The position numbers and the translations under genes were made by a program. Positions 1 to 15,558 of a DNA stretch of 64,000 nt are shown piece by piece. This stretch comes from an uncultured Nitrososphaerota archaeon. Lineage in GTDB: Archaea > Thermoproteota > Nitrososphaeria > Nitrososphaerales > CADDZS01. Below the pieces are notes generated by a model. The model had not been told where the DNA came from. It searched no databases and was given only the letters and a program-made list of their open reading frames with translations. Position 1 is the stretch's first letter; each line of letters opens with the position of its first letter. The stretch is taken from the NCBI GenBank assembly GCA_963799845.1, contig CAWCYI010000004.1, forward strand, positions 1,056,001 through 1,120,000, in the 5' to 3' direction.

Positions 1-1107
1 TGTGCCGTCGGCGATCCCTGCGGCGGTCTCATTAAGCAGTGTCTTCACGGATGCTGGGATTATACTGTCGTAGGAATGGAAGGGCCCGAGAGAACCAAGA
101 TTCAAGTTTTCTACTTGGCCTCCGATCTGGCTCCATGTGCCATTCAAGATGTGCTGGATCACTGGCTGTATGAATGCGGTCATGTTAAGGAGGACGCTTG
201 TCATCATGTCGGTTGGGGATAGATCAATTTGGTCCAAGACAGTACCTATGAGAGTAGTGTTACTAATCGTAGCTGCAGAGATTACTCCCAGTCCAGTCGT
301 GTCAGCAATTGGGACGAGGATGTCGACATGATCCGCTGTAATCATCGTCTGTGCATCTTCGTATCCGATGGTTGGGTCACTCCACGTTCCTGGAACGGTG
401 AGGTAAACCTGGGCCGAAGGATTCGAGCTGTGCACGCCAGCCTGATACGCATAGAACTCGTACGAGAGCGCTGCGAACCACTGACCGATTATGACTCCGG
501 TGGCGTTGGTCTTCGTCATTTTCCCAGATAGAACGCCTGCCAAATAGTAGCCCGTCGCTTGGTTTTGGGCGCCTAATGCTACCACGTTCTTGGTGAGGTT
601 GTCTCCGTCATATGTTGGAGTCATGATGAAGTCAACATTGGGGAATTTTGCGGCGATTGCTTCAGTTGTTCCGATGAATTGATTTCCGTCGGTCCATATC
701 ACGTTGTAGCCTTGCTGTGCGTACGATGTCATTACTGCCCCCTGATCAGAATAGGCGACATCTTGCGAGATTGAGACCGTCCAACCATAGGTGGCACCGA
801 TCCATTGCGCTACTTGAACGCCTTGATCGTTCAAACCATCATCTGTTGTGTCTCCACCGACAAGAAGCGCTAGCTTGTACTGTTGAGTTGGCGAGCTGCT
901 ACTTGTCGTCGAGCTGGTTGTGCTAGTGACGGTTGAGACGGCCGTTGAAGTGGCAGTAGTCGTGGCGGTAGTGGTCGCAGTGGTTGTGAGAGTCTTCGAA
1001 AGCGAGGGAATAGCGATCACTATCCCAATTGAAGCCACCAATATGATTACTATAACGATTATAACCGCAGCCATCGTTGAGAGTGCTTTCTTATTTTCGA
1101 ATTTCAT
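1..1107 (-). CDS. BMP-family (nucleoside/purine) ABC transporter substrate-binding protein, 3' end outside window
   Basis: Manual translation from ATG 1107 is open to base 1 (not in the ORF track because it has no stop): MKFENKKALSTMAAVIIV, Thr-rich linker, then KLALLVGGDTTDDGLNDQG...GYYLAGVLSGKMTKT...PGTWSDP...ADTTGLGVI. Adjacent to two BPD_transp_2 permeases. Confidence 0.88.
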   Translation of the reverse strand, partial: MKFENKKALSTMAAVIIVIVIILVASIGIVIAIPSLSKTLTTTATTTATTTATSTAVSTVTSTTSSTTSSSSPTQQYKLALLVGGDTTDDGLNDQGVQVAQWIGATYGWTVSISQDVAYSDQGAVMTSYAQQGYNVIWTDGNQFIGTTEAIAAKFPNVDFIMTPTYDGDNLTKNVVALGAQNQATGYYLAGVLSGKMTKTNATGVIIGQWFAALSYEFYAYQAGVHSSNPSAQVYLTVPGTWSDPTIGYEDAQTMITADHVDILVPIADTTGLGVISAATISNTTLIGTVLDQIDLSPTDMMTSVLLNMTAFIQPVIQHILNGTWSQIGGQVENLNLGSLGPFHSYDSIIPASVKTLLNETAAGIADGT

Positions 1108-1159
1108 AAAAATTCGCTGAGTATTGAATACGCTCCCGATTTTAATAAGGGAGAACACG

Positions 1160-1177
1160 ATTCTCAATCCTGAGAAT
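1160..1177. promoter_or_regulatory. Palindromic operator ATTCTCA-atcc-TGAGAAT upstream of BMP gene TATA box
   Basis: Perfect 7-4-7 palindrome, 11 bp upstream (minus strand) of TTATTAAA (1148-1141); recurs at six other promoters. Confidence 0.75.
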
Positions 1178-1213
1178 GTGATCAAGAAGGCAAGCTCTGA
1201 CCAGAGGCTTCAT

Positions 1214-2158
1214 CTACTTCCGCTTGTATGGAACGGTAAGGGACGATGGTGACTTGGTTCCCCTATGAAAGAGTAGTATGAAGATAATGGCGAAGATGTA
1301 TGGTATCGCCAGTAGGAAGTAACCCGACGCCGTTCCAAGGCCAGAGAATATGCCGGAGCCTATGAATATCGCGGCTATCGAATATCCGAGTCCAAACAGC
1401 CAAGCTCCGGCGATCGCTTTGTAAGGACTCCATCTCGCGAAAATCACGACGACGATAGCAATCCACCCCCTCCCGGCTACGAGAGTATCTCCCGTCGCGT
1501 AAAGGCCAAGGTAGCCAAGCACAAGGGATGCTCCTGCAAGGCCAGCGAGAGTAGCACCCAGGATTACACACAGGTTCCTCACCAGATTGACGTTGATTCC
1601 GGCCGAATCAGCGGCTTCGGGATTCTCTCCTACCGCCCTGATTTTGAGGCCCCAAGTGGTCCTATAAAGAACAAGACCCAAAAGTATTGCCAAGGCGAGT
1701 GAAGCGTAGACCAAGATGTTCTGGCTGAACAAAATGGGGCCCACCACCGGCAGATTACTTAGGATGGGGATTTGCACCGGTGATATAGGGCGTACATGCA
1801 AGTACGAAGTCTTCGTCACTATTATGTAACCGAAATCACCCAAGGAGAGTGCTAGGAAGTATATCATGAGTCCTGCGATCAGCTGGTTGATTCCTATCCT
1901 GATAGTTGCGAATGAGTGCAGCACACCCATGGCAGACCCTACAGCCATCGCGGCGAGAAGTCCGTACAGGTAGGAGCCTGTCGAGAAGGTAACCCACAGC
2001 GAGATGAACGCTGATAGACTCATCACTCCCTCGATGCCCATGTTAAGCACACCGGACCTCTCTGCGTAGACTTCGCCGATCGAGGCGTAAAGAATGGGCA
2101 TAGTCAGCGGCAGGCTCGCTGCCAAGATTGATATGGCAAGATCTCCGTAAGAAACCAT
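1214..2158 (-). CDS. Nucleoside/sugar ABC transporter permease (BPD_transp_2 family)
   Basis: ERSGVLNMGIEG, GLKIRAVGENPEAADSAGI and GRGWIAI motifs; probable start MVSYGD at 2158. Confidence 0.92.
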   Translation of the reverse strand: MVSYGDLAISILAASLPLTMPILYASIGEVYAERSGVLNMGIEGVMSLSAFISLWVTFSTGSYLYGLLAAMAVGSAMGVLHSFATIRIGINQLIAGLMIYFLALSLGDFGYIIVTKTSYLHVRPISPVQIPILSNLPVVGPILFSQNILVYASLALAILLGLVLYRTTWGLKIRAVGENPEAADSAGINVNLVRNLCVILGATLAGLAGASLVLGYLGLYATGDTLVAGRGWIAIVVVIFARWSPYKAIAGAWLFGLGYSIAAIFIGSGIFSGLGTASGYFLLAIPYIFAIIFILLFHRGTKSPSSLTVPYKRK

Positions 2159-2166
2159 CCCATTCT

Positions 2167-3198
2167 TTACCCCTTGTTCGTCCTGTCGCCGATCCACTTC
2201 TGAACGATTAGGACAGACAGCACTATAATCGCCTGCAGAGCGTAGATCAATTCGATTGGTATAGCCGCGGCGCTGCGCTGCAGGCTCTCGCCACCAATTG
2301 TCAGCGCGGCATACAATACGGAGGCGATGACGATGCCCAACGGATGGAACGCACCCAGTGCAGCCACGGCGATTCCCTGATAGCCGTACCCGGGCGAGAA
2401 GTTCTGCGCGAGCACGTGGTCAACGCCTGCTACGACTACGATCCCTGCTAGTCCCGCGAGCGCCCCACTCATTAGGCCCACCGCGACTATGCTCCTTGAG
2501 ACATTGATGCCACCGCTCTGTGCCGCTCGTGGGTTCGCCCCAGACGCCCTGATTTCATATCCTAGAACCGTCTTGTAGAGAACAAAGTACACTGCGAAGG
2601 CTGCAATCCCGGCGATTATGGCACCTATGTTGAATTCCGTGCTCTGGACAAAGACAGGGAGCCAAGTCGACTGCGGCAAGGCTGGAGTCTGAAGGTTACC
2701 CGACAGCGGATCCTTAAGAGGTCCCGCCGTGAGCCAGTTCACTAGGTCCAAGGCAATAAAATTCATGACGAGCGTCGGAAAAATTTCGTTTACTTGGAGC
2801 TTGACTCTCATGAAGAGTGGCAGCGCTAGCCAGAGTGTTCCTCCAGCCGCAGCTGCCAAAAGCATCAGTGGAATTGCAATCACGCTGGGAAGATTGCCGA
2901 GCTGGGCAGCCGCCACATAGCCGAACAATGCACCAATGTAGAGCTGACCCTCTACCCCGATGTTGTAGAATCTAGCCCTGAACGCCACAAGGAATGCAAG
3001 AGCAGCGAGCAGAAGGGGTGCCGTGAGAAAGAATGTCTCGGAGGTGAGAAAGGTTGTACCAAATGACCCTGTTACGAGACCCTCCATGCTCGTGATAGGA
3101 TTGTATCCGAAAGCCAAGAGAATGAGAGAGAAAATTACCAGCGACGCAACAATCCCGAGCAAGTATGAGACGTAATTTCCCAGGGATAGTTGCGTCAT
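2167..3198 (-). CDS. Nucleoside/sugar ABC transporter permease (BPD_transp_2 family)
   Basis: FYNIGVEGQ, GYEIRASGANPRAA and GYGYQGIAVA motifs; multi-pass membrane protein. Confidence 0.92.
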   Translation of the reverse strand: MTQLSLGNYVSYLLGIVASLVIFSLILLAFGYNPITSMEGLVTGSFGTTFLTSETFFLTAPLLLAALAFLVAFRARFYNIGVEGQLYIGALFGYVAAAQLGNLPSVIAIPLMLLAAAAGGTLWLALPLFMRVKLQVNEIFPTLVMNFIALDLVNWLTAGPLKDPLSGNLQTPALPQSTWLPVFVQSTEFNIGAIIAGIAAFAVYFVLYKTVLGYEIRASGANPRAAQSGGINVSRSIVAVGLMSGALAGLAGIVVVAGVDHVLAQNFSPGYGYQGIAVAALGAFHPLGIVIASVLYAALTIGGESLQRSAAAIPIELIYALQAIIVLSVLIVQKWIGDRTNKG

Positions 3199-3222
3199 AA
3201 TACACCCCACACAGGCATCCGA

Positions 3223-4488
3223 TTAGGCGTACTCGGCCGCAAAAGTTGTGAGGGCTTTTTTGAATGCCTCCATCGGCGCCTCAGCGATCCCGGTACCTAT
3301 TATCCCATGGCCGCCGTCCTTGTGAGCAATTCCAGTATCAACTCTTGGCGGGGAATTGAGCTCTACTACTTTGCGAATGTCAATCCCGACTGGGACGCCG
3401 ACAAAATCCATGTAGGGAATTCTGAATAGTGGGTCTTCGGCAAGAGAGACTTTTTGCATCGCTCGTGTGTGTTGGACTGCCTCGTCAAGCCCACCTCCGA
3501 AAAGTCTCGCTTGGGAGGGAGATGCGGGTAACGCGGTTCCTCCGAACCCTCTGGATTCCGAGATCGCGCTATCGCCTATATCTGGAGCTGCGTCAGCTGC
3601 CGTGAAACCGGGGAATAGAAAACCTTTGATCTCTCCGGCCGGACCGGTAAACCATTCGTCACCGAGGGCGCTTACCTTGATCCCGAAATCAACACCATTT
3701 CTTGCCATCGCGGTCACAACCGTACTGTACTTTATCCCTTTGGCCGAGTCCATCATCACCTTGCAAGCGCCCATCATCAAGTTGCCGCAGTACCAGCGAC
3801 CACCATTTCCCATGAAGTAGTCGCCGACCTCTCCCAAAGTCTCCTTGGGAAAGCCAGTCCTAACAATGTGGGGAAGAATCCAGTTCATGAGAACGCCACG
3901 ACAGGCTTCGAAAGAACCGTGTAATTCGTCGCCCATGGTAAGCCCCTTGGAAAGCAATTCTTTGATATTGAATCCACCTGCGTGCTTGATGGTCGCCGCG
4001 AGAACAGGAGCCATCGTCTCCTTGACAAACTCAACTTCCTTGATTGCCCGCTCATATTTGTCGGCAAACGATGTTAGATCTGTCTGCATCCAGTCGGTTG
4101 CAGTGTTACCGTGCACCTTGTCTTTGAGAACCAGAACCGGACTCGATGCTGATGTCACGCCGCACATACCGCTTACATTTCCGTAATTGTGATTGGGTTC
4201 AATTCTGACCTCGCCCGTCCTAGCGAGCTTCTCCGCACGTCGCGCAGTATCGGCGAGGCCTTCCGCCCTAATTGCGTTGATAATAGCGATCTTTTGAACT
4301 TTGATCATTCTGTCCCATTCGATTGGCGGCCCGGCGTGTGTAATCAGGTCGCTCTTGTATCCTGATATTGCTTTAATCGCTGGTTTCAGGTCAACCAAAA
4401 CCGCTTCAGATTCAAGTATTCTGGCAACAGCTTTTCCGTTAGCTTCATCGATCTGGTCTTTCAGCTCACTACTCAAATTAGCTAGCAC
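3223..4488 (-). CDS. DUF1116 family protein (YlbE/AllG-like, oxamate carbamoyltransferase subunit family)
   Basis: HAGPPIEW, MGDELH, MARNGVDFGI, PDIGDSAI and TGIAHK motifs; divergent from carbamate kinase. Confidence 0.85.
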   Translation of the reverse strand: MLANLSSELKDQIDEANGKAVARILESEAVLVDLKPAIKAISGYKSDLITHAGPPIEWDRMIKVQKIAIINAIRAEGLADTARRAEKLARTGEVRIEPNHNYGNVSGMCGVTSASSPVLVLKDKVHGNTATDWMQTDLTSFADKYERAIKEVEFVKETMAPVLAATIKHAGGFNIKELLSKGLTMGDELHGSFEACRGVLMNWILPHIVRTGFPKETLGEVGDYFMGNGGRWYCGNLMMGACKVMMDSAKGIKYSTVVTAMARNGVDFGIKVSALGDEWFTGPAGEIKGFLFPGFTAADAAPDIGDSAISESRGFGGTALPASPSQARLFGGGLDEAVQHTRAMQKVSLAEDPLFRIPYMDFVGVPVGIDIRKVVELNSPPRVDTGIAHKDGGHGIIGTGIAEAPMEAFKKALTTFAAEYA

Positions 4489-4559
4489 TTCTATTTTTCA
4501 GCAACATTCTTAGAATAGGCTCTAGTTTTCGACGTGTAGACAATTTAAGTACGGGGACG

Positions 4560-4577
4560 ATCTTCAGATCTGAGAAC
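4560..4577. promoter_or_regulatory. Operator variant ATCTTCA-gatc-TGAGAAC upstream of DUF1116 operon TATA
   Basis: Same 7-4-7 layout; 11 bp from TTAAAT on the minus strand. Confidence 0.65.
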
Positions 4578-4615
4578 GTCAAACAAGCCGCTCAAGCTAG
4601 AAGACTATTGTGTTG

Positions 4616-4633
4616 ATTCTCAAGTATGAGAAT
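4616..4633. promoter_or_regulatory. Operator ATTCTCA-agta-TGAGAAT upstream of arcC TATA
   Basis: Perfect palindrome 13 bp upstream of TTATAT (4647). Confidence 0.75.
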
Positions 4634-4726
4634 CGTCATGTCGGATTATATGTTGCAATGAACAAAAATCCTCTCTCTGGGATTTGGTATCCGGCCTTTT
4701 AGATTTTAGATGTTCCATGGCAAGTC

Positions 4727-5734
4727 GTGAATGACAAAATTTCCTTGAATGAAGAGGAGAGGGATAAGATATTGGGAAGATATGCGAATGCCAAGAAGAA
4801 AATTTTAGTCGCCCTGGGCGGAAACGCCCTCATAACGCATGGAGAATCAGGCATAATTGAACAAGAGGAAAATGCCAAGGCTGCTGTCAAGCATCTGGTT
4901 AAACTTCTTGAAGAGGGTAATAAATTGGTGATAACCCATGGTAACGGACCTCAAGTTGGAGACATCCTCCTAAGGAATGAAATTGCGAAGGATACAGTTC
5001 CGGCCATGCCACTCGACGTATGTGGTGCCGAAAGCCAAGGGATGATCGGTTACGTACTCCAGCAATCTCTCTACAATGAATTAAGAAGGAAGGGCAAGAA
5101 TACTCCGGTCGCTACGATTCTCACGCAATCAATAGTCGACAAGGCTGATCCGGCGTTCAAGAAGCCCACAAAACCAATTGGTCCATTTTATACGAAAATC
5201 GAATCTTCAAAGCTGTCACGAAAAAAGGGATGGAAAATGATCAACGACAGTGGTCGGGGTTATCGACGCGTCGTACCTTCCCCGCGCCCGATTGCGATTC
5301 CGGAGTTTCCGATAATTAAGGAATTGTTTGATCGTAACTACATCATAATTCAATCTGGAGGCGGAGGCATTCCAGTTGTGCGTAAGCAGAATGGGACGCT
5401 GATTGGCGTGGAGGCTGTTGTCGACAAAGATCTTTGCGCGTCCTTGCTTGCTTCTCTTCTCAAGACTGATGTATTGTTAATCCTGACCGACGTTGACAAA
5501 GTTAGGCTGAACTACGGCAGACCGGACCAAAGATCTCTTGACAGAATGACAGCGGACGAATGCAAGAAATATCTTGCGGAGGGGCAATTCCCTGCAGGAA
5601 GCATGGGCCCTAAAATAGAAGCAGCGATGAATTTTGTTAAATCTGGAAAAGAAAAGACTGCGATAATTACGTCGTTAGAGCTTGCTGAGACAGCATTGAA
5701 AGGCGAGACCGGCACGAGAATTGTAAATTCGTAA
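4727..5734 (+). CDS. arcC: Carbamate kinase
   Basis: VALGGNAL, THGNGPQVG, PTKPIGPFY, GGGGIPV and GSMGPKIEA motifs. Confidence 0.96.
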   Translation: MNDKISLNEEERDKILGRYANAKKKILVALGGNALITHGESGIIEQEENAKAAVKHLVKLLEEGNKLVITHGNGPQVGDILLRNEIAKDTVPAMPLDVCGAESQGMIGYVLQQSLYNELRRKGKNTPVATILTQSIVDKADPAFKKPTKPIGPFYTKIESSKLSRKKGWKMINDSGRGYRRVVPSPRPIAIPEFPIIKELFDRNYIIIQSGGGGIPVVRKQNGTLIGVEAVVDKDLCASLLASLLKTDVLLILTDVDKVRLNYGRPDQRSLDRMTADECKKYLAEGQFPAGSMGPKIEAAMNFVKSGKEKTAIITSLELAETALKGETGTRIVNS

Positions 5735-5915
5735 GTGGGCTGTTCCAGTTCCCGATCTTCTTCTGATATCACGACTCTTGGGACAACATCGCCATCTTTG
5801 CACGGATTCCGCTGCCGTTGAATAGGCGGGTTTCTCTGTTCTGACAGATTGGTCGACGGCTAACCATGATAGTCTCTATATTGAAATTCACGTGAGTAGA
5901 AAGGCTCCTTTTACA

Positions 5916-5933
5916 ATTCTCAATTTTGAAGAT
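5916..5933 (+). promoter_or_regulatory. Operator variant ATTCTCA-attt-TGAAGAT
   Basis: About 12 bp upstream of CTATAT (5946), in front of the 5992 gene. Confidence 0.65.
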
Positions 5934-5991
5934 CGTGTACTGTATCTATATCGTTAAGCAAGATCTTATTTTACAGAGGTCATGAAACCCA

Positions 5992-6216
5992 ATGTCAACA
6001 GTAATGAAAGAGACAGTCGAGGAAGAGCGTCCGGTTTCGTTGTCACATGTGAGGCAGCAAATACTGACCTATGGTGACGAAATACACGCGTTTCTGGAAC
6101 ATGTTCACGCAGATGTAGAGAACTATAAGTTCACCGTGGAAAAACGTGCAGATGGCGTAGTAGTTGAGATCAACTTTAAGGCCTTGATCAAAACGAAGCC
6201 GGTTCTGAAGCCATAG
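5992..6216 (+). CDS. Small hypothetical protein (74 aa)
   Basis: ATG ORF with protein-like composition, own promoter, no competing ORF. Confidence 0.7.
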   Translation: MSTVMKETVEEERPVSLSHVRQQILTYGDEIHAFLEHVHADVENYKFTVEKRADGVVVEINFKALIKTKPVLKP

Positions 6217-6316
6217 GTCTAAGCCGAACTGACTTTACTTAATTGTCCTCGTTCTCAACGAGGACTTCACCTAATTGGCAGGAATTTGACCTGTAACGAA
6301 GGATGGTTGTGAACAA

Positions 6317-6667
6317 TTGAATCTGAGACAAACTCGGCGAAAATCGAATTCTAAGATTCAGCAATCAGATAGGGCTGTTATATCTTCTCCAACCTTCTTG
6401 AAATTAGATGATTCGATTCTGATGGGTATTGATCGAAGAACCGCCGGAGAGCTCGTGGCTGGGTATCTCTACTTCAAATCAACTCGCAGAACGGATGCCG
6501 ATTTCACTCGTTTTCTGTTGGCCAACAGATTAGATGTTGTCTTGCGGATAGTTGGGAATTCTCTCCCAGTGCTAATACCTGCGTTCTTCTCCGACAAGGA
6601 ATTAAGATCGTTAGTTGTAAACGTTTTCATGAGATCATTTTATAGTTTAGAGCCGAATCAGTACTGA
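6317..6667 (+). CDS. Hypothetical protein (true start probably 6398 or 6422)
   Basis: A TATA-like TTATAT at 6378 lies inside the annotated N-terminus, suggesting a later start. Confidence 0.55.
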   Translation: MNLRQTRRKSNSKIQQSDRAVISSPTFLKLDDSILMGIDRRTAGELVAGYLYFKSTRRTDADFTRFLLANRLDVVLRIVGNSLPVLIPAFFSDKELRSLVVNVFMRSFYSLEPNQY

Positions 6668-6795
6668 AGGGAAAGCGGCCCGCAGGTTGCTTCATTTCTG
6701 GAAAGAATCACACTTCCGATCGTACGGGCCCCATTAGGAGGGTAGACGAAAAATTAGTGTAATAAGTCAAACCGGTATGAATTCTCACTCGGCTC

Positions 6796-6832
6796 AATTT
6801 CATTTTTGAGAATCGTCTACCCCACTTTAATA
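6796..6832 (+). promoter_or_regulatory. Operator AATTTCA-tttt-TGAGAAT plus TATA box TTTAATA driving the candidate ncRNA
   Basis: Motif 6796-6813, TATA 6826-6832 (12-bp gap as at the other copies); no long ORF follows. Confidence 0.7.
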
Positions 6833-6856
6833 TTGGCTGTGTGTACTTATTCATTC

Positions 6857-7088
6857 GTCGTTCGGCCAGGTAAAGGTTGTATTTGGAGACAAGAAAAAGC
6901 ACTGGGTAAGGGCTTAGTGCATGGCGCCTATCTCTGACCGTCCGGGTGAGTATGTAGAAACGGGTTCACCCGAACTTCGGACACTCTCGGACGAGGGCAA
7001 ACCGAGACAGTGGGAATGAAGGAAATCTACGTAGCCGCTGTCAAAGGAAAGCCACATGCGTCCTGAAAGCCGAATGGCATTATTTTTT
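6857..7088 (+). ncRNA. Candidate ~230-nt multi-stem structured non-coding RNA (family not recognised)
   Basis: Closing stem 6857-6870/7062-7078; nested TGGC/GCCA, CCT/AGG, TGAC/GTCA, CGG/CCG and TATGTAGA/TCTACGTA; hairpins 6899-6920, 6961-6972 and 6982-7012; G-U wobbles favour the + strand; T-tract at 7083-7088. Confidence 0.6.
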
Positions 7089-7745
7089 CCAAGACCAAGC
7101 AAAAGGTTTCTGTTGTTCTGCGGTTTGACTAAGATAAACATCAGGAGTTGTTTCACGAATTGATCCGTGATCAACATCGAGAATGAATATCGTATGGACT
7201 TCGGCATAGGTAATTTGATCTATCGTTACTGCGGGATTTGAATAGTACATATCACAAACGAATTTAGCCATTTGAACTTCCGCAGTGTTTCTGAATCGAG
7301 GAGGCTGTTGGAAGATGCCTGGAACCGGCAGGATATTTGTGACAGTCGTCCCCAAAACGAATCTATTTGCAAACGGACTGTATCTTGCGGTCTTACTGAT
7401 TATTCTTGCATAACAGTATCTTGCAGGATCAAGCGCATGGGAAGGGGGAACAAAACCCGTCTCAATCTCGACTATCATGGTGCTCTCACCCTTCATGCCG
7501 TAGACATCGCAAACCAGATTATCCTTCAATTCGTGCTCGACTTTGACTTCGTAGCCTTCAGAAATCAGTTTGTCCGCGCACAACAGTTCAATTACAGAGT
7601 GATTGATCTTGACAAGGTTCTTCCTATAGAGATCGACGAGGTGCAGCCTCACAGAATCAAGTTTGGCCTTGACTTCTGGGGATCGTCCTATCGAAACTCT
7701 CCTGCACATCTCCACTAGATCATCATCAAATCTCTTTACATTCAA
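7080..7745 (-). CDS. Archaeal hypothetical protein with PD-(D/E)xK-like motif
   Basis: VEHE...CDVYG...IVEIETGFVPP resembles a restriction-endonuclease-like fold core. Confidence 0.7.
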   Translation of the reverse strand: MNVKRFDDDLVEMCRRVSIGRSPEVKAKLDSVRLHLVDLYRKNLVKINHSVIELLCADKLISEGYEVKVEHELKDNLVCDVYGMKGESTMIVEIETGFVPPSHALDPARYCYARIISKTARYSPFANRFVLGTTVTNILPVPGIFQQPPRFRNTAEVQMAKFVCDMYYSNPAVTIDQITYAEVHTIFILDVDHGSIRETTPDVYLSQTAEQQKPFAWSWKK

Positions 7746-7837
7746 CAGTTATTGTACACTGCAATCAAATCACTGACTATCATAGAATATAAAAGAAAAA
7801 GCATGGATCCTGTCAGAAATTCTTCCCGCTCTTGATG

Positions 7838-7855
7838 ATTATCAAATCGGAGAAT
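7838..7855 (+). promoter_or_regulatory. Operator variant ATTATCA-aatc-GGAGAAT
   Basis: 11-13 bp upstream of TTTTTTAT (7867), before the 7921-mgtA cluster. Confidence 0.55.
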
Positions 7856-7920
7856 CGTATAACCTCTTTTTTATCCTGCTTTGATATTACTTGTACGTTG
7901 AATAATGTGGGAACCTGGAA

Positions 7921-8496
7921 ATGTTGAATGATCAAGAACGATTACAGCACAAGAAGGAAGTAGCAGAGCTGGTGATCAAGGATATCGAACTTCTGGAGGG
8001 TGATGTCCGCAAGGGGATGTTCCCAGCCGAGACAGAACCCGAACAAATAATTGAACTTGTGAAAGCGCTCGCGAGCCTAAGTGGGGGTATAGATGTGGTA
8101 AACCTACAGAAAATCTTAGGCATACATAGTGACGAAATGGAACGATTAGTAAACGCTAGCCAGATCTTGGGCTTCACGAGTATCCACAATGGTCTTATCT
8201 GGTTAAGTGGGGCTGGAACGGAGCTGGGCAATTCTCCGATGAGCAAGAAAAGGCAGCTTATATCAGAAAGGATTTCCTTACTCGAACCTTTTAGGACAGC
8301 GATCGATATTGCGACTAAATCCAAGAGTTTCTCATCAGACAAAGTAGCTGATGTCCTCTCAAAGAAAGACCTCAGATGGGCAGAGGAAGAAGAGCTGAAT
8401 GAGTTACTTGTCCACGACATTCTTGTAGACTGCGCGGTTTTTGCAGGATTGCTTGAGTATGATGGAAGGACTGATATGTTTAGCCTGCGGTCGTGA
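7921..8496 (+). CDS. Stand-alone AAA-associated (nitrate/sulfonate ABC ATPase C-terminal-like, wHTH) domain protein
   Basis: GGIDVVNL...LVNASQILGF...IWLSGAG...FAGLLEYD pattern resembles AAA_assoc_C. Confidence 0.65.
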   Translation: MLNDQERLQHKKEVAELVIKDIELLEGDVRKGMFPAETEPEQIIELVKALASLSGGIDVVNLQKILGIHSDEMERLVNASQILGFTSIHNGLIWLSGAGTELGNSPMSKKRQLISERISLLEPFRTAIDIATKSKSFSSDKVADVLSKKDLRWAEEEELNELLVHDILVDCAVFAGLLEYDGRTDMFSLRS

Positions 8497-8571
8497 ATGT
8501 GGAAATATTACAAATGCTCTAAACTCGAAAAGAGTTTCAGCTGAGACAAAAACGGATCTGAATTACGTCTT

Positions 8572-9363
8572 TTGCCTATTCCACTCGTCGAACCATCCGA
8601 GAGACAGGCAGTTCGGAGAATCAAGCGACACATTCACGCCTTGGAGGAAGTCGAGCAGTGCCGAGAAGTGCGAATGTCGTTCACAAGAAAGAAACCGCAT
8701 GTATACGTGCACGTCTGGCTTCGGGGAAACCCTGACTACGAGACTATTCACAGGATCTGCTCAACAATTGAAGTTGTAGTCAGAGTCATTGTCCCAAATG
8801 CAAGGGTAGCAGTGCGTTCAGAACCGAGCGTTGAAGGAACCGAAGAGGCGTGGTATCTCGTCAAGAAAATCGCGGAAGAGGAATCCGGATCTAGGGGCGC
8901 GCACAATATTCATCTAAAGAATGCCGGGGAAACGCTGGGAGTTGATTTTGTTCTTGAAGTGAGCGCGGACATGAACCTAAGACAGGCACATGACGTTTCG
9001 GCTCGGATAGAGAAAAAGATCGTTGCGTCAAATTCTAGAATATCGGAGATAATCATTCACGAAGAGTATGTTTCCGAGCTGATCGCGAGCGAACAATCCG
9101 GTCATGGCACCGAGATAAAATGGTACATTTTCCATGTCGTAATGAGATTTCCTGAAATTAGATTGATTCGGAATCCGACTATTCGACGGGTTGGTGATTT
9201 TTTCCACGTTTCAATCAGAGCAGCATTCAAGACCGGGACTAGTCCAGAGAAAATAAGTGAGGTTACATCAAGACTGGACTCGGCTATCAGAAACGGATAT
9301 CCAGCAATCGAAAAAGTATTCATTGTAACAGACTCGTCATCACGTGCTTCTGATACATTATAG
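8572..9363 (+). CDS. Soluble protein of tandem cation-efflux dimerisation (ZT_dimer-like) domains
   Basis: Three ~80-aa repeats, e.g. AHNIHL...VDFVLEVSADMNLRQAHDVSARIE...IIIHEE; no TM helices. Confidence 0.7.
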   Translation: MPIPLVEPSERQAVRRIKRHIHALEEVEQCREVRMSFTRKKPHVYVHVWLRGNPDYETIHRICSTIEVVVRVIVPNARVAVRSEPSVEGTEEAWYLVKKIAEEESGSRGAHNIHLKNAGETLGVDFVLEVSADMNLRQAHDVSARIEKKIVASNSRISEIIIHEEYVSELIASEQSGHGTEIKWYIFHVVMRFPEIRLIRNPTIRRVGDFFHVSIRAAFKTGTSPEKISEVTSRLDSAIRNGYPAIEKVFIVTDSSSRASDTL

Positions 9364-9441
9364 CGGCGAAGAAGCACGAAATCAAAGAAGCCCGAAGCTT
9401 CGAGAACTGTCGCAGAGTACTGGTCGCTTGAGAGTTCTGAC

Positions 9442-11949
9442 GTGTTCCGAGCTGAGGGCACAAGTGAGCAGGGCTTATCAAGCGAGGAAGCGAGGAATCG
9501 TCTTGCCATTTACGGCCCAAACGAACTGCCAAGGGAAAAATTCAGCTGGATAAAAATTCTCATCAATCAATTCACGAATCCAATGTTCGTAATACTCATC
9601 GTTGTGGCCGTCATTTCAGGATTCCTAGGCCAACCGGAACAATCTGCAATCATACTTGTGATCATAGGTCTGAGCGTAGTTCTCGGATTCTACAACGAAT
9701 TTCGTGCCGAGAAACTCGTCGAGGAGCTGAAGGACACTGTTTCAATAAAGGCTGTCGTCACAAGGGACGCCAAGACGAGCGAGCTCGATTCAGCCTTGCT
9801 TGTTCCGGGTGATCTTGTAACAGTGTACATAGGTGATATCGTCCCCGCCGACATGAGAATAATCGACTCGAAGGAATTACAAGTCAACGAGGCCGTACTG
9901 ACCGGTGAGTCGTTTCCCGTAGATAAGAATCCGGAGAGACTTTCAAACGCACCTTCTGCCCTAACTCAGGCCTCAAACTTGCTCTTCATGGGCACTGTCG
10001 TTACAAAAGGGATCGCTCGTGGAATCGTAACTTCTACAGGCAAGAATACCGAATTCGGCTCGATTTCAAAGAGCCTAGCTCGCGCGCACCCGGAAACAGA
10101 GTTCCAAAAAGGCACAAAGCGATATGGGAACCTGTTACTAACTCTCACGTTCTTTCTTGCAATAGGGATCTTTGGTTTCAATGCTTTAGTGGGACACTCG
10201 TTGCTGAACTCTCTTCTGTTTTCACTCGCAGTTGCAATAGGAATCGTGCCCGAGATGATGCCAGGGATAGTGACAATCACACTGTCACGTGGCGCTCACA
10301 AGATGGCGAAAGAGAAGGTCATTGTAAAGAGGCTTGTTTCAATGGAGAACTTGGGAAATATCAACGTGCTATGCACTGACAAGACCGGTACCTTAACAGA
10401 AGGTAAGATTATTCTGGAGAATTCAATAGCTCCTGACGGTACGGCCTATGAGAGACCTGTCACCTTGTCAGTTGTTTGCAGCGCGGCAACCTTCGTTGGA
10501 GAGAAGATCTCTGGCAATCCCATGGATGTAGCGATTCAGGAGTACGCTATCCAAGAAGGTCTACAAAATTTGGCCGCAGATTACCAGAAGGTCAACGAGG
10601 TTCCGTTTGACTATCATAGACGCATGGTGACTGTCATTGCAAACTGCAAAGACGAACTGATCCTGATCACAAAAGGTGCCCCCGAATCAGTGTTGCAAAA
10701 ATGCAAGTATGTAGAGTGGAATAAAGAAAAGACAGAGATTACTCCTGAGCTTACGGAAGAGATGTCCAAGAATTTCAACAATTTTTCAGAGAAAGGTCTG
10801 CGGGTTCTTGCAGTAGCTTGCGGTGAGACGGGAGCAAAAAGAGAGTACAGCAGCGCAGATGAAACAGATCTCACAATGGTGGGTTTTCTTGTCTTTACAG
10901 ATCCTCCAAAATTGAATGCAGGCAGTGCCATCGCAAAACTCAAGGCGCTTGGGGTGGATACCAAGATTTTGACTGGTGACAATGAATTAATTGCAAAGAA
11001 AGTTTGCGAGGATCTGGGTCTCCACATCAACGGAATCGTTACTGGTTCAGACCTGACTCCATTGAGCTGGGTTGAGTTCAAGTCGCGAGCGGAAGAAGCG
11101 ACAATTTTTGCTAGAGTCACCCCAGATCAAAAGCTAGATCTGATCAAGGCACTAAAGGAAAATGGGCATGTTGTGGGTTACATGGGAGACGGCGTAAACG
11201 ATGCTCCTGCCCTCTATGAAGCAGACGCTGGAATATCTGTAGACTCGGCTGTCGATGTCTCGAAATCAGCAGCCGATATAGTTCTTTTGGAGAAGGATCT
11301 AAATGTTCTCGCAAACGGCGTGGAAGAAGGACGAAGGACCTTCGCCAATACAATGAAGTACGTCCTAATGGGTACGAGTTCAAACTTTGGTAACATGTTC
11401 AGCGCATCCGCTGCTTCCGTGTTCCTCCCCTTCCTGCCGATGCTTCCAATGCAGATTCTTTTCATGAACCTGTTATACAATTTCTCAAATCTGACTCTTC
11501 CAACCGACAATGTTGATCCAGAGTACACCAAATGGCCAAGGCGATGGGACATTGGGTTTGTACGGAATTTCACCTTGTTTTTCGGACCGTTTAGCTCGGT
11601 CTACGACTTCTTGACGTTTGGGATAATGCTGTTCATATTTCAAGCGTCAGCCTCGCTTTTCCAAAGCGGATGGTTTGTCGAATCCTTCTGGACGGAGGTA
11701 TTGATCATATTTGTGATCAGAACAAGACGTATTCCGTTTTACAAAAGCCGGCCTGGTAAGTGGCTCACGGTCTTGACGCTGGGTTGCGTGGCGTTCGGTA
11801 CGGTACTACCATTTACAACGCTGGGTAGTTTCTTGGGTTTTGTGCCACTGCCACTTGGCTTCTGGGTACTAAACATACTCATGACTGCCACCTACCTGCT
11901 ACTAGTAGACGCAGGTAAGGTCTTCTTTTACAGGGTGTGCGGATTTTGA
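9442..11949 (+). CDS. mgtA: Magnesium-translocating P-type ATPase (P3B)
   Basis: TGES, PEMMP, DKTGTLT and MGDGVND motifs; FQSGWFVES and FVIRTRRIPF are typical of MgtA; start codon uncertain. Confidence 0.92.
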   Translation: MFRAEGTSEQGLSSEEARNRLAIYGPNELPREKFSWIKILINQFTNPMFVILIVVAVISGFLGQPEQSAIILVIIGLSVVLGFYNEFRAEKLVEELKDTVSIKAVVTRDAKTSELDSALLVPGDLVTVYIGDIVPADMRIIDSKELQVNEAVLTGESFPVDKNPERLSNAPSALTQASNLLFMGTVVTKGIARGIVTSTGKNTEFGSISKSLARAHPETEFQKGTKRYGNLLLTLTFFLAIGIFGFNALVGHSLLNSLLFSLAVAIGIVPEMMPGIVTITLSRGAHKMAKEKVIVKRLVSMENLGNINVLCTDKTGTLTEGKIILENSIAPDGTAYERPVTLSVVCSAATFVGEKISGNPMDVAIQEYAIQEGLQNLAADYQKVNEVPFDYHRRMVTVIANCKDELILITKGAPESVLQKCKYVEWNKEKTEITPELTEEMSKNFNNFSEKGLRVLAVACGETGAKREYSSADETDLTMVGFLVFTDPPKLNAGSAIAKLKALGVDTKILTGDNELIAKKVCEDLGLHINGIVTGSDLTPLSWVEFKSRAEEATIFARVTPDQKLDLIKALKENGHVVGYMGDGVNDAPALYEADAGISVDSAVDVSKSAADIVLLEKDLNVLANGVEEGRRTFANTMKYVLMGTSSNFGNMFSASAASVFLPFLPMLPMQILFMNLLYNFSNLTLPTDNVDPEYTKWPRRWDIGFVRNFTLFFGPFSSVYDFLTFGIMLFIFQASASLFQSGWFVESFWTEVLIIFVIRTRRIPFYKSRPGKWLTVLTLGCVAFGTVLPFTTLGSFLGFVPLPLGFWVLNILMTATYLLLVDAGKVFFYRVCGF

Positions 11950-11969
11950 AGGGAGCTAGTTGAGAGGGA

Positions 11970-12263
11970 ATGGTTTACGCGGATCTGTTTGGCTGGTGGA
12001 TCGGCACAATCAGCTGGAGTATCGCCTTTCCAATCGTGGTGAGCATTTACTTGCATCGGCGTAGAATTCGGTCATCAACGGCCCAAGTGAGAAAGAAGGT
12101 CCAGTGGGTAAGAGACTTTACGTTTGTATGGTTTCTATTGGGTCTTCTTATTTTCTACATAATTACAGTAAGTCAAGGGTCGTCTTTAGAGTTCGGGATT
12201 GGGAATATCGCCTTCGAGTTGTTGCTCATCACATACGCTTTCAAAAACAGACAGAAAAATTAG
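11970..12263 (+). CDS. Small membrane protein (3 TM)
   Basis: Hydrophobic segments; SD-like GAGGG before ATG; 20 bp after mgtA. Confidence 0.7.
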   Translation: MVYADLFGWWIGTISWSIAFPIVVSIYLHRRRIRSSTAQVRKKVQWVRDFTFVWFLLGLLIFYIITVSQGSSLEFGIGNIAFELLLITYAFKNRQKN

Positions 12264-12359
12264 TCCTCAGAGATGAAGTACAGGATATTCGCCATCGTAA
12301 TGACAAACACTGATAGACACGCTCTAAGTTGAATCAAAGGTTGACTTCAAAAGTCGAGC

Positions 12360-12377
12360 GTTATCATTGTTGAGAAT
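12360..12377 (+). promoter_or_regulatory. Operator variant GTTATCA-ttgt-TGAGAAT
   Basis: 12 bp upstream of TTAAAA (12390). Confidence 0.6.
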
Positions 12378-12455
12378 CGTATTCGGGTCTTAAAAGAATG
12401 GAAGAGCATTATGTGCTCGCTGTGGTTCAGCTTGACGAATGGTGATATTATAAGT

Positions 12456-12572
12456 ATGGAAGTATCAAATGATGCACTCGTAATCTGCGATTCGAGATTT
12501 GGAAATACAAAGAAAATAAGAGAGGGGAAAAAGTTGAGGAGATCGGAAAGTCTTTCTCAGCCATCACAATAG
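12456..12572 (+). pseudogene. Truncated flavodoxin remnant
   Basis: Manual translation MEVSNDALVICDSRFGNTKKI... matches the flavodoxin N-terminal S-x-x-G-N-T loop, then stops at 38 aa. Confidence 0.6.
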
Positions 12573-12587
12573 GGAGGAGATGCAAGT

Positions 12588-12857
12588 ATGAGCGTTGTCA
12601 GCGAACGTAGATCAGCGACAGGATATGAAGGCCCCATAGCTCCTATCATTGCATCAATTGTTGGAATTATTGTGTGGCTTGTTTTTTTCTTGGTTTATGC
12701 GCTGTAATGGTCAAAGAGTTTTGATCTTTTTCAAAACGTCATTGTCACGATGGTCTCGCTCACAATCGCTACAGTGTTGATCGGCTTGATGTGGCTCATC
12801 TGGTTCAAACCAACGGGTGAGCTCCGAAGACCTTTAAAAGAAACATCTGCCAATTGA
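12588..12857 (+). pseudogene. Two-TM membrane protein interrupted by in-frame TAA (12705-12707)
   Basis: MSVVSERR...VWLVFFLVYAL*WSKSFDLFQNVIVTMVSL...; the hydrophobic frame continues after the stop. Confidence 0.6.
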
Positions 12858-12961
12858 GCGGCCGCGACAAAAACCGATCTGTTATCAATTGCATCACTTC
12901 CTTAGATGAAATATCAGTTTCTGGGGCCATGGGAAACTCTTAGGTTCTCGATCCCCATCGT

Positions 12962-13840
12962 ATGTCGAATAAATTGGTATACGCTGAGCTTGCTGGGATT
13001 AAGTTAGGAGACGACTATCCTGTCAGAATAATGGGAATCATTAACGTCAGTCCCGAGTCCTTCTACAAGGGCTCGGTGAAATCGAGACCGGATGACGCTT
13101 CTGAACTTGCCGCCGAGATGGTGAAGGAAGGCGCGGATATTATCGATGTAGGCGGAATGTCGACTGCCCCTTATCTCGTAACGGAGATTTCCATCGAAGA
13201 GGAGACCAAGAGATTGATGACAGCGATCAAAGCGATCAGGGAAGCTGTTAAAGTACCGATATCAGTTGATACTCCCAGGTTGGCTCCAGCAGAAGCTTCT
13301 CTGGAAGCCGGAGCGAAAATTGTTAATGATGTAAGCGGTCTGAAGCATGACGCGCGAATGGCAGACCTCATCACAAAACATGATGCTTCCGCTATCCTGA
13401 TGGCCTTCGAAATGAAGAATAGCTCCGGTCCACCCATGGAAAGAATCACGTCAGCATTGAGAGAAACACTCGACTTGAGCAGCAGGGTTGGAATACCAGA
13501 GAAGAAGATCGTGATTGATCCTGGTCTGGGATTTTTTCGCAAGGATGGAAGAGGATTTGGATTCTCACCTTCCAGCGAACTTCCTTGGTACGCGTGGGAT
13601 TGTACCGTTATTAGGGAGCTTGGTCAACTTCGAAGTTTGGGCAGGCCTTCGTGCATCTCGATATCAAGAAAGTCCTTCATTGGCAAGATACTCGGGATCG
13701 AAAATCCTGACGAGCGGCTGATCGGTTCGCTTGCAGCGACATCAATTGCCGTCTTTAACGGGACTCACCTAGTTAGAACTCACGACGTCGGCGCAACCGT
13801 TCAGGCAGTAAGATTGGCTGAGAGTATCAGGAAGCGATGA
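12962..13840 (+). CDS. folP: Dihydropteroate synthase
   Basis: IMGIINVSPESF, DVGGMST, SVDT, DPGLGF, SRKSFIG and RTHDV motifs. Confidence 0.95.
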   Translation: MSNKLVYAELAGIKLGDDYPVRIMGIINVSPESFYKGSVKSRPDDASELAAEMVKEGADIIDVGGMSTAPYLVTEISIEEETKRLMTAIKAIREAVKVPISVDTPRLAPAEASLEAGAKIVNDVSGLKHDARMADLITKHDASAILMAFEMKNSSGPPMERITSALRETLDLSSRVGIPEKKIVIDPGLGFFRKDGRGFGFSPSSELPWYAWDCTVIRELGQLRSLGRPSCISISRKSFIGKILGIENPDERLIGSLAATSIAVFNGTHLVRTHDVGATVQAVRLAESIRKR

Positions 13841-13873
13841 GGATGACAGAATGCGATATCCCCGAAGCTGTGA

Positions 13874-14233
13874 TTGATTGTGGATAAGATCTTCATCGAG
13901 AATATGGTGGTGCCGTGCAGGGTGGGCATCACCGAGAAAGAAAGGGGTAGAAGGCAGACTGTAATCGTTGACCTTTACATCTTCCGCGACTTGACGGATG
14001 CGGGTATTACGGATGACCCTGATAAGACATCAAGCTATTCAGAAATTAGGGAGAATGTATTCGACTTTGTCTCAAAGGGCGAGTTCAGACTTCTGGAGAG
14101 CATCGCCGAGGGAATAGCTTCTCTCCTTCTCGAGAATACCGTTGTAATGAAAGTGAAGGTCAGGGTTCGGAAGAAAAAATACGCGACAAGTCCAGGCATT
14201 GGAATAGAGATTATGAGGACTCGCCATGGTTGA
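13874..14233 (+). CDS. folB: Dihydroneopterin aldolase (bacterial type)
   Basis: DKIFI...VGITEKE...QTVIVD...Y...FRLLESIAE...VRK; lies between folP and folK. Confidence 0.9.
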   Translation: MIVDKIFIENMVVPCRVGITEKERGRRQTVIVDLYIFRDLTDAGITDDPDKTSSYSEIRENVFDFVSKGEFRLLESIAEGIASLLLENTVVMKVKVRVRKKKYATSPGIGIEIMRTRHG

Positions 14234-14714
14234 TGTCTTTATCGGTCTTGGATCAAATCTTGACGATAGGGAGGGCAACCTGAGGAGGGCCGTAGAATTA
14301 CTGAAACAGAAGATGAAACTCGTCAAGGTCTCTTCTCTTTACGAGTCAGAACCAATGTACGTGAAAGACCAGCCTTGGTTCTTGAATTGTGTCGCGGAGT
14401 TCGAGACCAAACTTACTCCGGTAGAACTCCTGGATTATCTTCGTGAAATCGAAAGAAAGTTGAGAAGACAAGAGAGTGTGAGGTACGGTCCCAGGTCCAT
14501 CGATCTGGATATCTTATTCTACGGAAATGAAGTCGTAGAGAAAAACGGATTGAAAATTCCCCATCCCAGGATCCAAGAGAGGCGATTTGTCTTGGTTCCC
14601 CTCGAAGAGATTGATCCAGATTACATTCACCCGGTTTATCGAAGTAGTATTTCCACTCTCCTCGCTAATCTGAAATCGAACGAGTTGGTCCGAAAGGTTG
14701 AACAGTCAATTTAG
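14226..14714 (+). CDS. folK: 6-hydroxymethyl-7,8-dihydropterin pyrophosphokinase (bacterial type)
   Basis: IGLGSN, QPWFLN, GPRSIDLDIL and IPHPRIQERRFVLVPL motifs. Confidence 0.96.
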   Translation: MVDVFIGLGSNLDDREGNLRRAVELLKQKMKLVKVSSLYESEPMYVKDQPWFLNCVAEFETKLTPVELLDYLREIERKLRRQESVRYGPRSIDLDILFYGNEVVEKNGLKIPHPRIQERRFVLVPLEEIDPDYIHPVYRSSISTLLANLKSNELVRKVEQSI

Positions 14715-15011
14715 GGCACATATGGGGACGATACTTACGAGAAAATAGCTATCCCTAGCTATAACTCTATCCTGTACTCTCGCGCTTTTAATAGCAGTTC
14801 CCATTGATTCTTATATAGAAAAAATTCTGCCGTTTAGCAACCGCGCGTACCTTTTGGCCGAAGAGTTACGTTCAAGCTCTGTTCAATTGAAGCAGCTTGT
14901 TTCACCTCTGTAGCTAAAACAGAGCTCGAAACACCGAGTTCGATTTTCTTCTTCTGCCTCTTTTCCTGCCTAACTGTCAGGGGTCAATTCTTATCTTAGA
15001 AAGTATCACTC

Positions 15012-15548: not shown

Positions 15549-15558
15549 TCTCTAAGAA

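Follow-up and report, generated by a model that had tools for sequence, protein, structure and literature searches.

Does a palindrome that recurs in front of gene after gene in one stretch of archaeal DNA mark the promoters of a common regulon, and if so, what binds it and what does the regulon do? We addressed this question in 64,000 nucleotides (hereafter the window) of an uncultured Nitrososphaerota soil archaeon of the order Nitrososphaerales (GenBank assembly GCA_963799845.1, contig CAWCYI010000004.1), for which a preliminary description had reported ATTCTCA-N4-TGAGAAT at a fixed distance upstream of seven TATA boxes. The window corresponds to C4:1056001-1120000 of an assembly of 4.6 Mb in 9 contigs, with 47% G+C, a completeness of 86.7% and an archaeal small-subunit rRNA (SSU) fragment; coordinates without a prefix are those of the window. 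The host genome is labelled G000 and its family f1, the other families of the order are f2-f20, and g2 is the sister genus (G011 and G007). The palindrome proved to belong to an orientation-specific element that stands directly upstream of the TFB-recognition element (BRE) and TATA box of about 55-65 promoters throughout the genome.

Within the window, the pattern with three or fewer mismatches matched 15 times, compared with 5.0 +/- 2.2 times in shuffled sequences, and 0 of 100 shuffles reached 15. We scored sites with an iterated 21-column matrix trained genome-wide and called those of at least 20 bits strong. The seven copies listed earlier are genuine: they scored 22.0-26.3 bits and carried 0-3 mismatches (none at 1160 and 4616, three at 4560, and two each at 5916, 6796, 7838 and 12360). 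The refined element reads ATTMTCA-N4-TGAKAAT followed by an asymmetric CGT on the gene side; this CGT was present on the gene-facing side of all seven copies, 1160 and 4560 among them once their minus strand is read. The distances from the end of the 18-mer to the TATA-like box were, in order, 11, 11, 11, 13, 12, 11 and 12 nt, so the spacing of 11-13 nt on both strands was borne out at 7 out of 7 sites. By contrast, a weak eighth copy proposed at 6348 scored -0.5 and -1.6 bits in the two orientations, and we therefore dismissed it. The absence of copies past 12.4 kb held inside the window, where the best scores (15.8, 14.4 and 14.2 bits) were at background level, but the cluster extends leftward beyond it, with ten further sites of at least 20 bits at C4:1,020,753-1,047,346.

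A genome-wide matrix scan, as the preliminary description had suggested, placed these copies in a much larger set. With both strands counted, 188 matches reached 16 bits, compared with 7-14 when the matrix was reversed or its columns permuted and 43 in a genome simulated by a third-order Markov model; raising the threshold to 20 bits left 87 matches against 0-2 in the controls. Merging the two strands of the palindrome before counting left 65 strong sites, spread over five contigs, with 17 at C4:1.02-1.07 Mb in an island that reaches into the window and 7 further sites at C4:0.30-0.35 Mb. What stood of the shared regulon first described is thus a single orientation-specific element upstream of BRE/TATA that is common to the listed genes; its confinement to a local block of 12 kb did not.

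The geometry of these promoters was rigid. The best TATA-like 8-mer (consensus NTTAWWTA) began 6-10 nt past the CGT at 52 out of 65 strong sites, and a good TATA box occupied the expected place at 32 out of 65, compared with 1 out of 65 on the distal side and 14 out of 2000 random positions. Most sites (53/65) were uncovered by any open reading frame (ORF) longer than 150 aa, and in 56 out of 63 cases an ORF of at least 50 aa started 20-90 nt downstream of the motif. Divergent genes had separate copies, each oriented toward its own gene. The flank distal to the promoter showed no base preference and the CGT occurred on the promoter side only, and we therefore regard the CGT as an orientation mark rather than a part of symmetric recognition. 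Among sites of 12-18 bits, association with TATA (8/330) was at background, which is why we put the real set at about 55-65 promoters.

A mobile promoter cassette or the remnants of a repeat could scatter such sites, as could chance matches in AT-rich intergenic DNA. Sites do gather in two islands (C4:304-334 kb and C4:1020-1068 kb), and three matches of 18.6-19.6 bits (C4:42147, C6:1626299 and C7:6284) share one repeated sequence; they have identical downstream sequence and no TATA box and are false positives of the matrix. When the 260-nt promoter regions of the strong sites were compared, however, only 27 out of 2080 pairs aligned, 25 of them only from the motif to TATA. Given also the near-empty controls at 20 bits and the orthologous promoters in other genera, which keep the site amid diverged surroundings, we regard this explanation as refuted.

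To trace the element beyond the host, we searched for the exact 21-mer ATTMTCA-N4-TGAKAATCGT in 12 other genomes of the family and in 18 genomes, one each from 18 other families of the order. The host genome has 10 copies. The 21-mer was present in 10 out of 12 family genomes, from three genera, with at most 17 copies each, and the backwards control gave 0; one of the two genomes without it, G001, is counted only as a non-match. By contrast, it occurred in 1 out of 18 genomes from the other families, as a single match. Footprinting of orthologous promoters, also proposed earlier, pointed the same way. At five loci with orthologues of the window's carbamate kinase (59-63% identity), four (G011, G004, G009 and G002) kept both the kinase-side site and the divergent one, and the fifth (G012) had a 16.4-bit match only. 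None of five loci (0/5) with more distant carbamate-kinase paralogues (45-49% identity) had a site.

The promoters of the window and the genes that they head are as follows:

1140-1177, minus strand: motif (1157-1177 including CGT; 26.3 bits) and TATA-like box (1140-1148), between the second permease gene and the Bmp/PnrA-like gene
Start at 1107, minus strand: Bmp/PnrA-like substrate-binding gene (Pfam Bmp, 2e-37)
4542-4577, minus strand: motif (4557-4577; 22.0 bits) and TATA-like box (4542-4549), heading a leftward operon
3223-4488, 2167-3210 and 1214-2197, minus strand: the leftward operon, comprising an AllG-like gene and two BPD_transp_2 permease genes (Pfam), followed by the Bmp gene
4616-4652, plus strand: motif (4616-4636; 26.2 bits) and TATA-like box (4645-4652), heading the carbamate kinase gene
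4727-5734, plus strand: carbamate kinase gene (arcC, TIGR00746, 1.8e-123, above the cut-off)
5916-5952, plus strand: motif (26.1 bits) and TATA-like box, heading two small genes
5992-6216 and 6317-6667, plus strand: two small genes (74 aa and 116 aa) with no Pfam or NCBIfam family
6796-6833, plus strand: motif (23.6 bits) and TATA-like box (6826-6833), promoter of a non-coding RNA (ncRNA)
6856-7080, plus strand: structured ncRNA of about 225 nt, starting about 30 nt after the first base of TATA and ending just before a T-run
7838-7874, plus strand: motif (23.6 bits) and TATA-like box, heading a four-gene cluster
7921-8496, 8572-9363, 9442-11949 and 11970-12263, plus strand: the cluster, encoding an AAA_assoc_C protein, a protein with two ZT_dimer domains, an MgtA-type P-type ATPase (Pfam) and a 97-aa ORF
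12360-12396, plus strand: motif (24.6 bits) and TATA-like box, preceding two decayed genes
12411-12572, plus strand: flavodoxin remnant (53 aa), its N-terminal signature identical at 11 of 15 positions to two motif-driven flavodoxins (E 2e-5)
12588-12860, plus strand: small membrane-protein gene with an in-frame TAA at 12705-12707, its product 60% identical over 72 aa to that of C4:1581707-1581958

The sites at 4557 and 4616 form a divergent two-site promoter pair, 59 nt apart. On the left, the operon runs past the edge of the window into genes for an ABC ATPase, AllH and FdrA/AllF (FdrA NCBIfam match, 5.8e-136). The MgtA-type ATPase matched the TIGR01524 Mg-ATPase model at 5.9e-240, and the 5916 motif with both small ORFs is conserved in G004 at 72% DNA identity. 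The flavodoxin remnant and the ncRNA, both named in the preliminary description, are real. The promoters at 12360 and at the C4:1581707 paralogue are near-identical, and the gene behind the former has an in-frame TAA; this promoter has therefore outlived its gene.

Elsewhere in the genome, the 66 first ORFs behind sites of at least 19 bits included seven CBS-pair proteins, three universal stress proteins (Usp), two flavodoxins and two ABC ATPases, with single cases of Hsp20, a NrdG-like activase, CoxG and a cupredoxin protein, among others; 26 out of 66 had no Pfam family. One operon combines an amino-acid permease with ornithine carbamoyltransferase and arginine deiminase and adjoins a second carbamate kinase and a pyruvate kinase. 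Within 10 kb, motif promoters drive a B12-dependent ribonucleotide reductase (NrdJ/Z; two ORFs behind a CBS gene), PGA_cap, a dienelactone-hydrolase-like (DLH) protein with phosphoribosyltransferase pieces, and nicotinate phosphoribosyltransferase (NaPRTase). Further targets are a xanthine-dehydrogenase-family enzyme with a nitroreductase, DnaK, a Rieske/cytochrome b set, and FdrA/AllF with AllH. In g2, the 31 ORFs behind the same architecture included three Usp, three 4Fe-4S, one 2Fe-2S and three radical-SAM proteins, as well as cytochrome bd oxidase subunit I, ApbE, a receiver protein and VKOR. What unites the targets is protection from stress, combined with ATP supply and nucleotide synthesis that do without respiration. 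The low-oxygen or energy-stress programme suggested earlier is thus plausible, as in the host and in its sister genus alike the targets suit stress, low energy or low oxygen.

Several of these target genes have features of their own. The NrdJ/Z gene (C4:1044483-1046581; L044:6486-8581, minus strand) consists of adjacent ORFs of 339 and 360 aa that jointly span the family model, whether through a frameshift, a genuine split of the gene or a fault in the assembly. The same kind of split occurs nearby in a NicO nickel transporter (174 + 178 aa) and a Mo-cofactor enzyme (357 + 484 aa). Two near-identical motif-driven genes (C4:305096-305671 and C8:48716-49288) each specify a polytopic membrane protein of 190 aa that matches no Pfam family.

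The 6796 promoter differs from the others in that no ORF is present downstream of it. The transcript would instead be the RNA of about 225 nt, which folds with a minimum free energy z-score of -3.2. G007 matched the window over 6853-7649 at 68% overall, and mean column identity was 85% over 6790-7100, the stretch of promoter plus RNA. Five metagenome loci, found with a 24-mer search, keep the motif, the TATA box, an RNA of about 225 nt and a T-rich tail. An RNAalifold consensus of seven sequences contained 70 pairs, 10 of them compensatory, with 97.8% of cells paired, compared with 35-40% (and 0-1 compensatory pairs) in slid controls. With 16 sequences from five families, 45 out of 70 pairs were compensatory and 93% of cells paired, compared with 9-14 and 35-40% in slid controls; this alignment was fitted to a covariance model, which favours structure. 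A search with the covariance model found one full-length copy in each of 11 out of 71 genomes of the order, namely G000 and one of six others in f1 (G007), 4 out of 6 in f9, 2 out of 2 in f6, 2 out of 6 in f11 and 1 out of 2 in f18.

No known family accounts for this RNA. Rfam 15 gave nothing at E<=1 over window positions 1-16000, and on a 261-nt stretch the best scores were 18.9, 16.2 and 14.8 bits, against gathering thresholds of 45-50 (best E 0.37). Judged by sequence and covariation, the RNA is new, conserved and outside the known Rfam families. Its link to the motif varies with the family. G000, G007, G029 and all five metagenome homologues carry the motif at -58 to -60 relative to the 5' end of the RNA; it scores 23.6 and 23.1 bits in f1 and 22.0 bits in f18, and is degenerate (8-13 bits) in four f9 genomes. 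In four f6 and f11 genomes it is absent (<=2 bits) before the RNA, and these are families in which we did not find the winged-helix protein described below. An ORF of 221 aa (7080-7745, minus strand) without a Pfam or NCBIfam family is also conserved in G007 and G012; in G000 and G007 it runs toward the ncRNA, the two 3' ends meeting at about 7080.

Which protein binds the element? The preliminary description had seen no cognate regulator gene in the block; this needs correction, since a candidate family is present in the host, with one paralogue (C4:1050780-1051103) only 5 kb left of the window and a motif-bearing one at C4:304534-304887. The latter encodes a 118-aa protein whose sole domain match, slightly below the Pfam cut-off, is to HTH_20 of the ArsR clan (26.0 bits, cut-off 27), and is followed by a gene for a DUF7521 membrane protein. 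Precomputed tables assign PF12840 to most homologues and give no informative database name. A motif stands 66 nt upstream of the start of this gene, and also at 3 out of 6 orthologous loci (56-92% identity), of which a fourth begins too near a contig end to judge. A further paralogue (C4:317464-317784) and a fragment (C8:72318-72509) complete the set; all lie no more than 3.4 kb from a strong site, and the recognition helix ST(S/C)YRR(V/I)(N/H)E is common to all paralogue groups. One of the two 190-aa membrane-protein genes mentioned above diverges from the factor gene, and the gene at that place in G028 has a weak COX1 match.

An AlphaFold model of the factor (pLDDT 85.6, pTM 0.77) has the layout of the Phr family, in which beta strands and a C-terminal helix come after the winged helix. 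We compared it with known structures using Foldseek. The nearest were PH1932 (2cwe and 1uly) and Phr (2p4w), with E values of 1e-4 to 4e-4, TMq of 0.62-0.67 and 17-19% identity, and the next were ArsR/SmtB-type proteins, including HlyU and SmtB. A phmmer search against PDB sequences gave nothing better than E 0.85 and no match to Phr. The likeness to Phr extends to its targets: Phr controls hsp20 and its own gene, and the motif-bearing promoters of the host likewise include those of hsp20 and of the factor gene. The two systems differ in that the candidate has 118 aa, compared with about 190-200 aa for Phr, and in that the site here is upstream of BRE; the Phr operator overlaps the transcription start and represses.

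Across the order, the factor family was found in 42 out of 61 sampled genomes; it was not found among these in f2, f3, f6, f7, f11, f13 and f20, including 0 out of 2 genomes in f6 and 0 out of 5 in f11. Of 12 loci in f9, f10, f14 and f17, eight had a site scoring at least 15 in its core within the 1.6-1.7 kb around the gene and four had none; several of these sites show the complete CGT-N8-9-TATA arrangement. In G020, a genome that looks complete, one of only four loose matches genome-wide (control 1) abuts the factor gene, and in G063 3 out of 12 loose matches (control 2) lie within 1.1 kb of it. The pairing of the factor with DUF7521 is retained in f1, f9, f14 and f17, and motif copies are linked to the factor gene in five families, f1 included, while the neighbouring genes change. 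In 6 out of 10 Nitrososphaera loci (L034, L036-L039 and L041), a variant palindrome, GGWCCCA-N4-TGGGATTCGT, stands upstream of a factor homologue with the same TATA spacing; at L039 it drives a divergent blue-copper (cupredoxin-like) gene. A scan of the order for YCCA-N4-TGGRATTCGT found this variant in only 2 out of 61 genomes, both in f1, and so revealed no large regulon of it among the sampled genomes.

Pairs of this kind may be widespread in archaea, since the accessible text of a preprint on Haloferax volcanii names HVO_B0192/HVO_B0193, a transmembrane protein and a DUF7521-annotated regulator, as the pair with the strongest up-regulation in a qarA mutant, and does not characterise them (10.1101/2025.11.10.687552). 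A predicted complex of the host factor with DUF7521 (score 0.00, mark 0.32) gave no verdict either way.

Taking these results together, we give slightly better than even chances to a reading in which one dimeric factor of the Phr/ArsR-like winged-helix family acts on the palindrome at about 55-65 promoters and governs a programme for stress and energy limitation with a low-oxygen flavour. The site, ending 11-13 nt upstream of TATA and directly upstream of BRE, would be bound by a single dimeric transcription factor; the half-site centres, 11 bp apart, would suit a winged-helix dimer. With archaeal transcription starting some 26 nt past the centre of TATA, the palindrome would be centred near -50. 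As factor, we consider most likely the small winged-helix protein whose sequence is ArsR-like (HTH_20), whose fold comes nearest to Phr and whose gene is paired with one for DUF7521. Of its several paralogues in the host, the one with the motif in its own promoter would probably be subject to positive autoregulation. The programme would supply ATP at the substrate level through two carbamate kinases (an arginine deiminase route and an oxamate route) and reduce ribonucleotides independently of oxygen; it would also deploy Usp, CBS-pair proteins, Hsp20, DnaK, flavodoxins, ion pumps and the ncRNA. We infer that the winged-helix protein binds the site, that it is mainly an activator which assists TFB/TBP in occupying promoters of poor BRE, and that low oxygen or low energy charge sets the programme off.

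Several observations weigh against this reading, in part or as a whole. All gene starts are mechanical ORF calls, and a search of sequencing runs for the region returned four DNA runs of one study and no RNA run. The motif-bearing paralogue has neither Cys nor His, so no sensing chemistry is evident in it; other paralogues do have Cys, one group in a Cys-rich C-terminal tail. The link between factor and motif is also incomplete: the motif-rich genomes G004 and G011 yielded no close orthologue of the motif-bearing paralogue, only paralogues of 40-49% identity, and many genomes of the order have the factor family but not the exact f1 21-mer. Loose matches did not separate genomes with the protein from those without it, real and control counts being 152/66, 86/46, 31/32, 98/49 and 15/19 in protein-lacking genomes and 4/1, 12/2, 47/24, 40/21 and 47/10 in protein-bearing ones; in AT-rich genomes, the ratio was near 2 regardless of the protein, which makes the loose count non-discriminating.

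These gaps leave room for a different binding factor acting on a real operator, with the winged-helix/DUF7521 genes merely conserved targets. Linkage of motif and gene speaks, after all, for regulation of the gene or its neighbours and not for binding by the gene product. That the linkage persists over five families despite changing neighbours argues for the winged-helix protein itself, however, as do the recognition helix shared by all paralogues and the exact coincidence between the two families in which no protein was found and those whose ncRNA promoter is without the motif. We also considered as regulator the Lrp/AsnC-like target at C6:560446-561111, the other regulator-like gene in the set, and rejected it; none was found in 7 out of 12 family genomes, six of which have the exact 21-mer, including G007 and G011. 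This Lrp/AsnC-like family has 12 matches in G000, three with in-frame stops and two with motif promoters, and is patchy in relatives. On balance, another binding factor seems to us unlikely.

Is the winged-helix factor an activator or a repressor? In Methanocaldococcus jannaschii and Pyrococcus furiosus, respectively, Ptr2 and TFB-RF1 activate from sites just upstream of BRE/TATA, and archaeal operators wholly upstream of BRE are activating in general, including those of SurR and TrmBL1 when so placed; fixed spacing, a site upstream of BRE and a poor BRE make up the archaeal activator pattern. The element shares with Ptr2 and TFB-RF1 a dimer site at a fixed distance immediately upstream of BRE/TATA and possibly sub-optimal core promoters, whereas the candidate belongs to neither the Lrp/AsnC nor the TFB-RF1 family, and about 60 promoters make a far larger regulon. 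At -6 to -3 before TATA, A content was 0.11-0.24 in 54 motif promoters and 0.35-0.43 in 184 others, the latter being ORFs with well-bounded but mechanical starts in a lineage whose general BRE lacks independent definition. The comparison rests on these 184 because a first-ATG ORF set gave codon periodicity only and nine tRNA upstream regions were too few. Since the sites lie wholly upstream of BRE, the spacing is fixed and the BRE may be poor, we favour activation.

The same site could nevertheless serve a repressor that covers BRE, blocks TFB/TBP and is released under stress, or a dual regulator whose sign is set by position. The best fold matches, Phr, PH1932, HlyU and SmtB, are repressors. 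With a gap of only 8-10 nt between CGT and TATA, a footprint slightly wider than the palindrome would cover BRE, and the A-poor region could reflect extended contacts of the factor instead of a weak BRE. In f14, moreover, the site lies 39-22 nt before the factor's own start codon, apparently downstream of TATA, in a repressor-type position. This recalls SurR and TrmBL1, dual regulators of Thermococcales whose sign depends on site position: here, the palindrome is upstream of BRE at most targets but apparently past TATA at the factor's own gene in one family, although protein families and motifs differ and the motif-bearing paralogue lacks redox-switch cysteines. On the other side, the site did not overlap TATA or the start site in the 52 out of 65 promoters with fixed spacing, and these promoters are A-poor just upstream of TATA where others are A-rich, which suggests a weak BRE in need of help. 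We place repression, or a dual sign, on the unlikely side of an open-minded judgement.

The trigger invites a further alternative, namely a Phr-type regulon for general, heat or proteotoxic stress with no specific link to oxygen or energy. Hsp20, DnaK, Usp and CBS proteins are generic stress markers that suit general stress as well as hypoxia, and the nearest fold of the candidate is that of the heat-shock regulator Phr. The metabolic targets, by contrast, suggest supply under anaerobic or low-energy conditions (the arginine deiminase operon, two carbamate kinases, the B12-dependent reductase and the NrdG-like activase), and so do cytochrome bd oxidase, ferredoxins and radical-SAM enzymes in g2. 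We judge a purely general stress regulon unlikely.

Returning to the energy-limitation programme, its content resembles a bacterial one. In Mycobacterium tuberculosis, hrp1, hspX, nrdZ, ctpF, fdxA and acg presumably encode a CBS pair, an alpha-crystallin/Hsp20, a class II reductase, a cation P-type ATPase, a ferredoxin and a nitroreductase, respectively. The table in PMC4090907 places these genes in the DosR (DevR) regulon, together with the nrdZ neighbours Rv0571c and Rv0574c and six Usp genes. The same types of protein (Usp, CBS pair, Hsp20, NrdJ/Z, P-type ATPase, nitroreductase and ferredoxin) are among the targets described here, where NrdJ/Z likewise has PGA_cap, the DLH protein with its phosphoribosyltransferase pieces and NaPRTase close by. 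Among the archaeal targets, only receiver-only proteins turned up, in searches that were not aimed at GerE-type regulators or haem kinases. The DosR system uses a NarL-type response regulator with haem kinases, whereas the archaeal programme would use a small winged helix and archaeal machinery; the DosR box also differs from the host motif. The likeness is thus best read as analogy and not circuit homology, and it possibly includes shared transferred gene modules.

A bolder extension, which we put forward tentatively as possible rather than probable, is that a Phr-like factor with a DUF7521 partner reads the membrane or respiratory state and controls an archaeal counterpart of the dormancy regulon, with about 60 promoters, self-feedback and an RNA, such that anoxia would be survived on carbamoyl phosphate derived from arginine and purines. 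The core of factor, operator and RNA would then be ancient in the order and greatly expanded in the host family. Soil Nitrososphaerales are usually treated as strictly aerobic. In G000, family searches for AmoA, AmoC and McrA found nothing; those for Amo had no positive control, so its absence is not established. Aragorn found only nine tRNA genes in 4.6 Mb, most of 92-97 nt and thus intron-bearing, so either most tRNAs have non-canonical introns or tRNAs are missing from the assembly.

Nitrososphaerales are abundant in soils and oceans, and to our knowledge almost nothing is known of gene regulation in this lineage (Thaumarchaeota). A full-text literature search found no prior description of the motif, regulon, factor or RNA; in the accessible text of PMC3379541, the promoter motifs treated are those of amo genes only. 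Our analysis contributes a cis-element that is clean and rigid in its geometry, the regulon of about 60 promoters that it marks, a candidate regulator family that can be tested and a new conserved RNA, of which factor, motif and RNA co-occur in other families of the order, in genomes of one to a few contigs. It also offers the physiological hypothesis that substrate-level phosphorylation carries these archaea through limitation of oxygen or energy. The types of gene shared with the DosR regulon suggest a common 'dormancy toolkit' that has been wired independently to the bacterial and archaeal transcription machineries.

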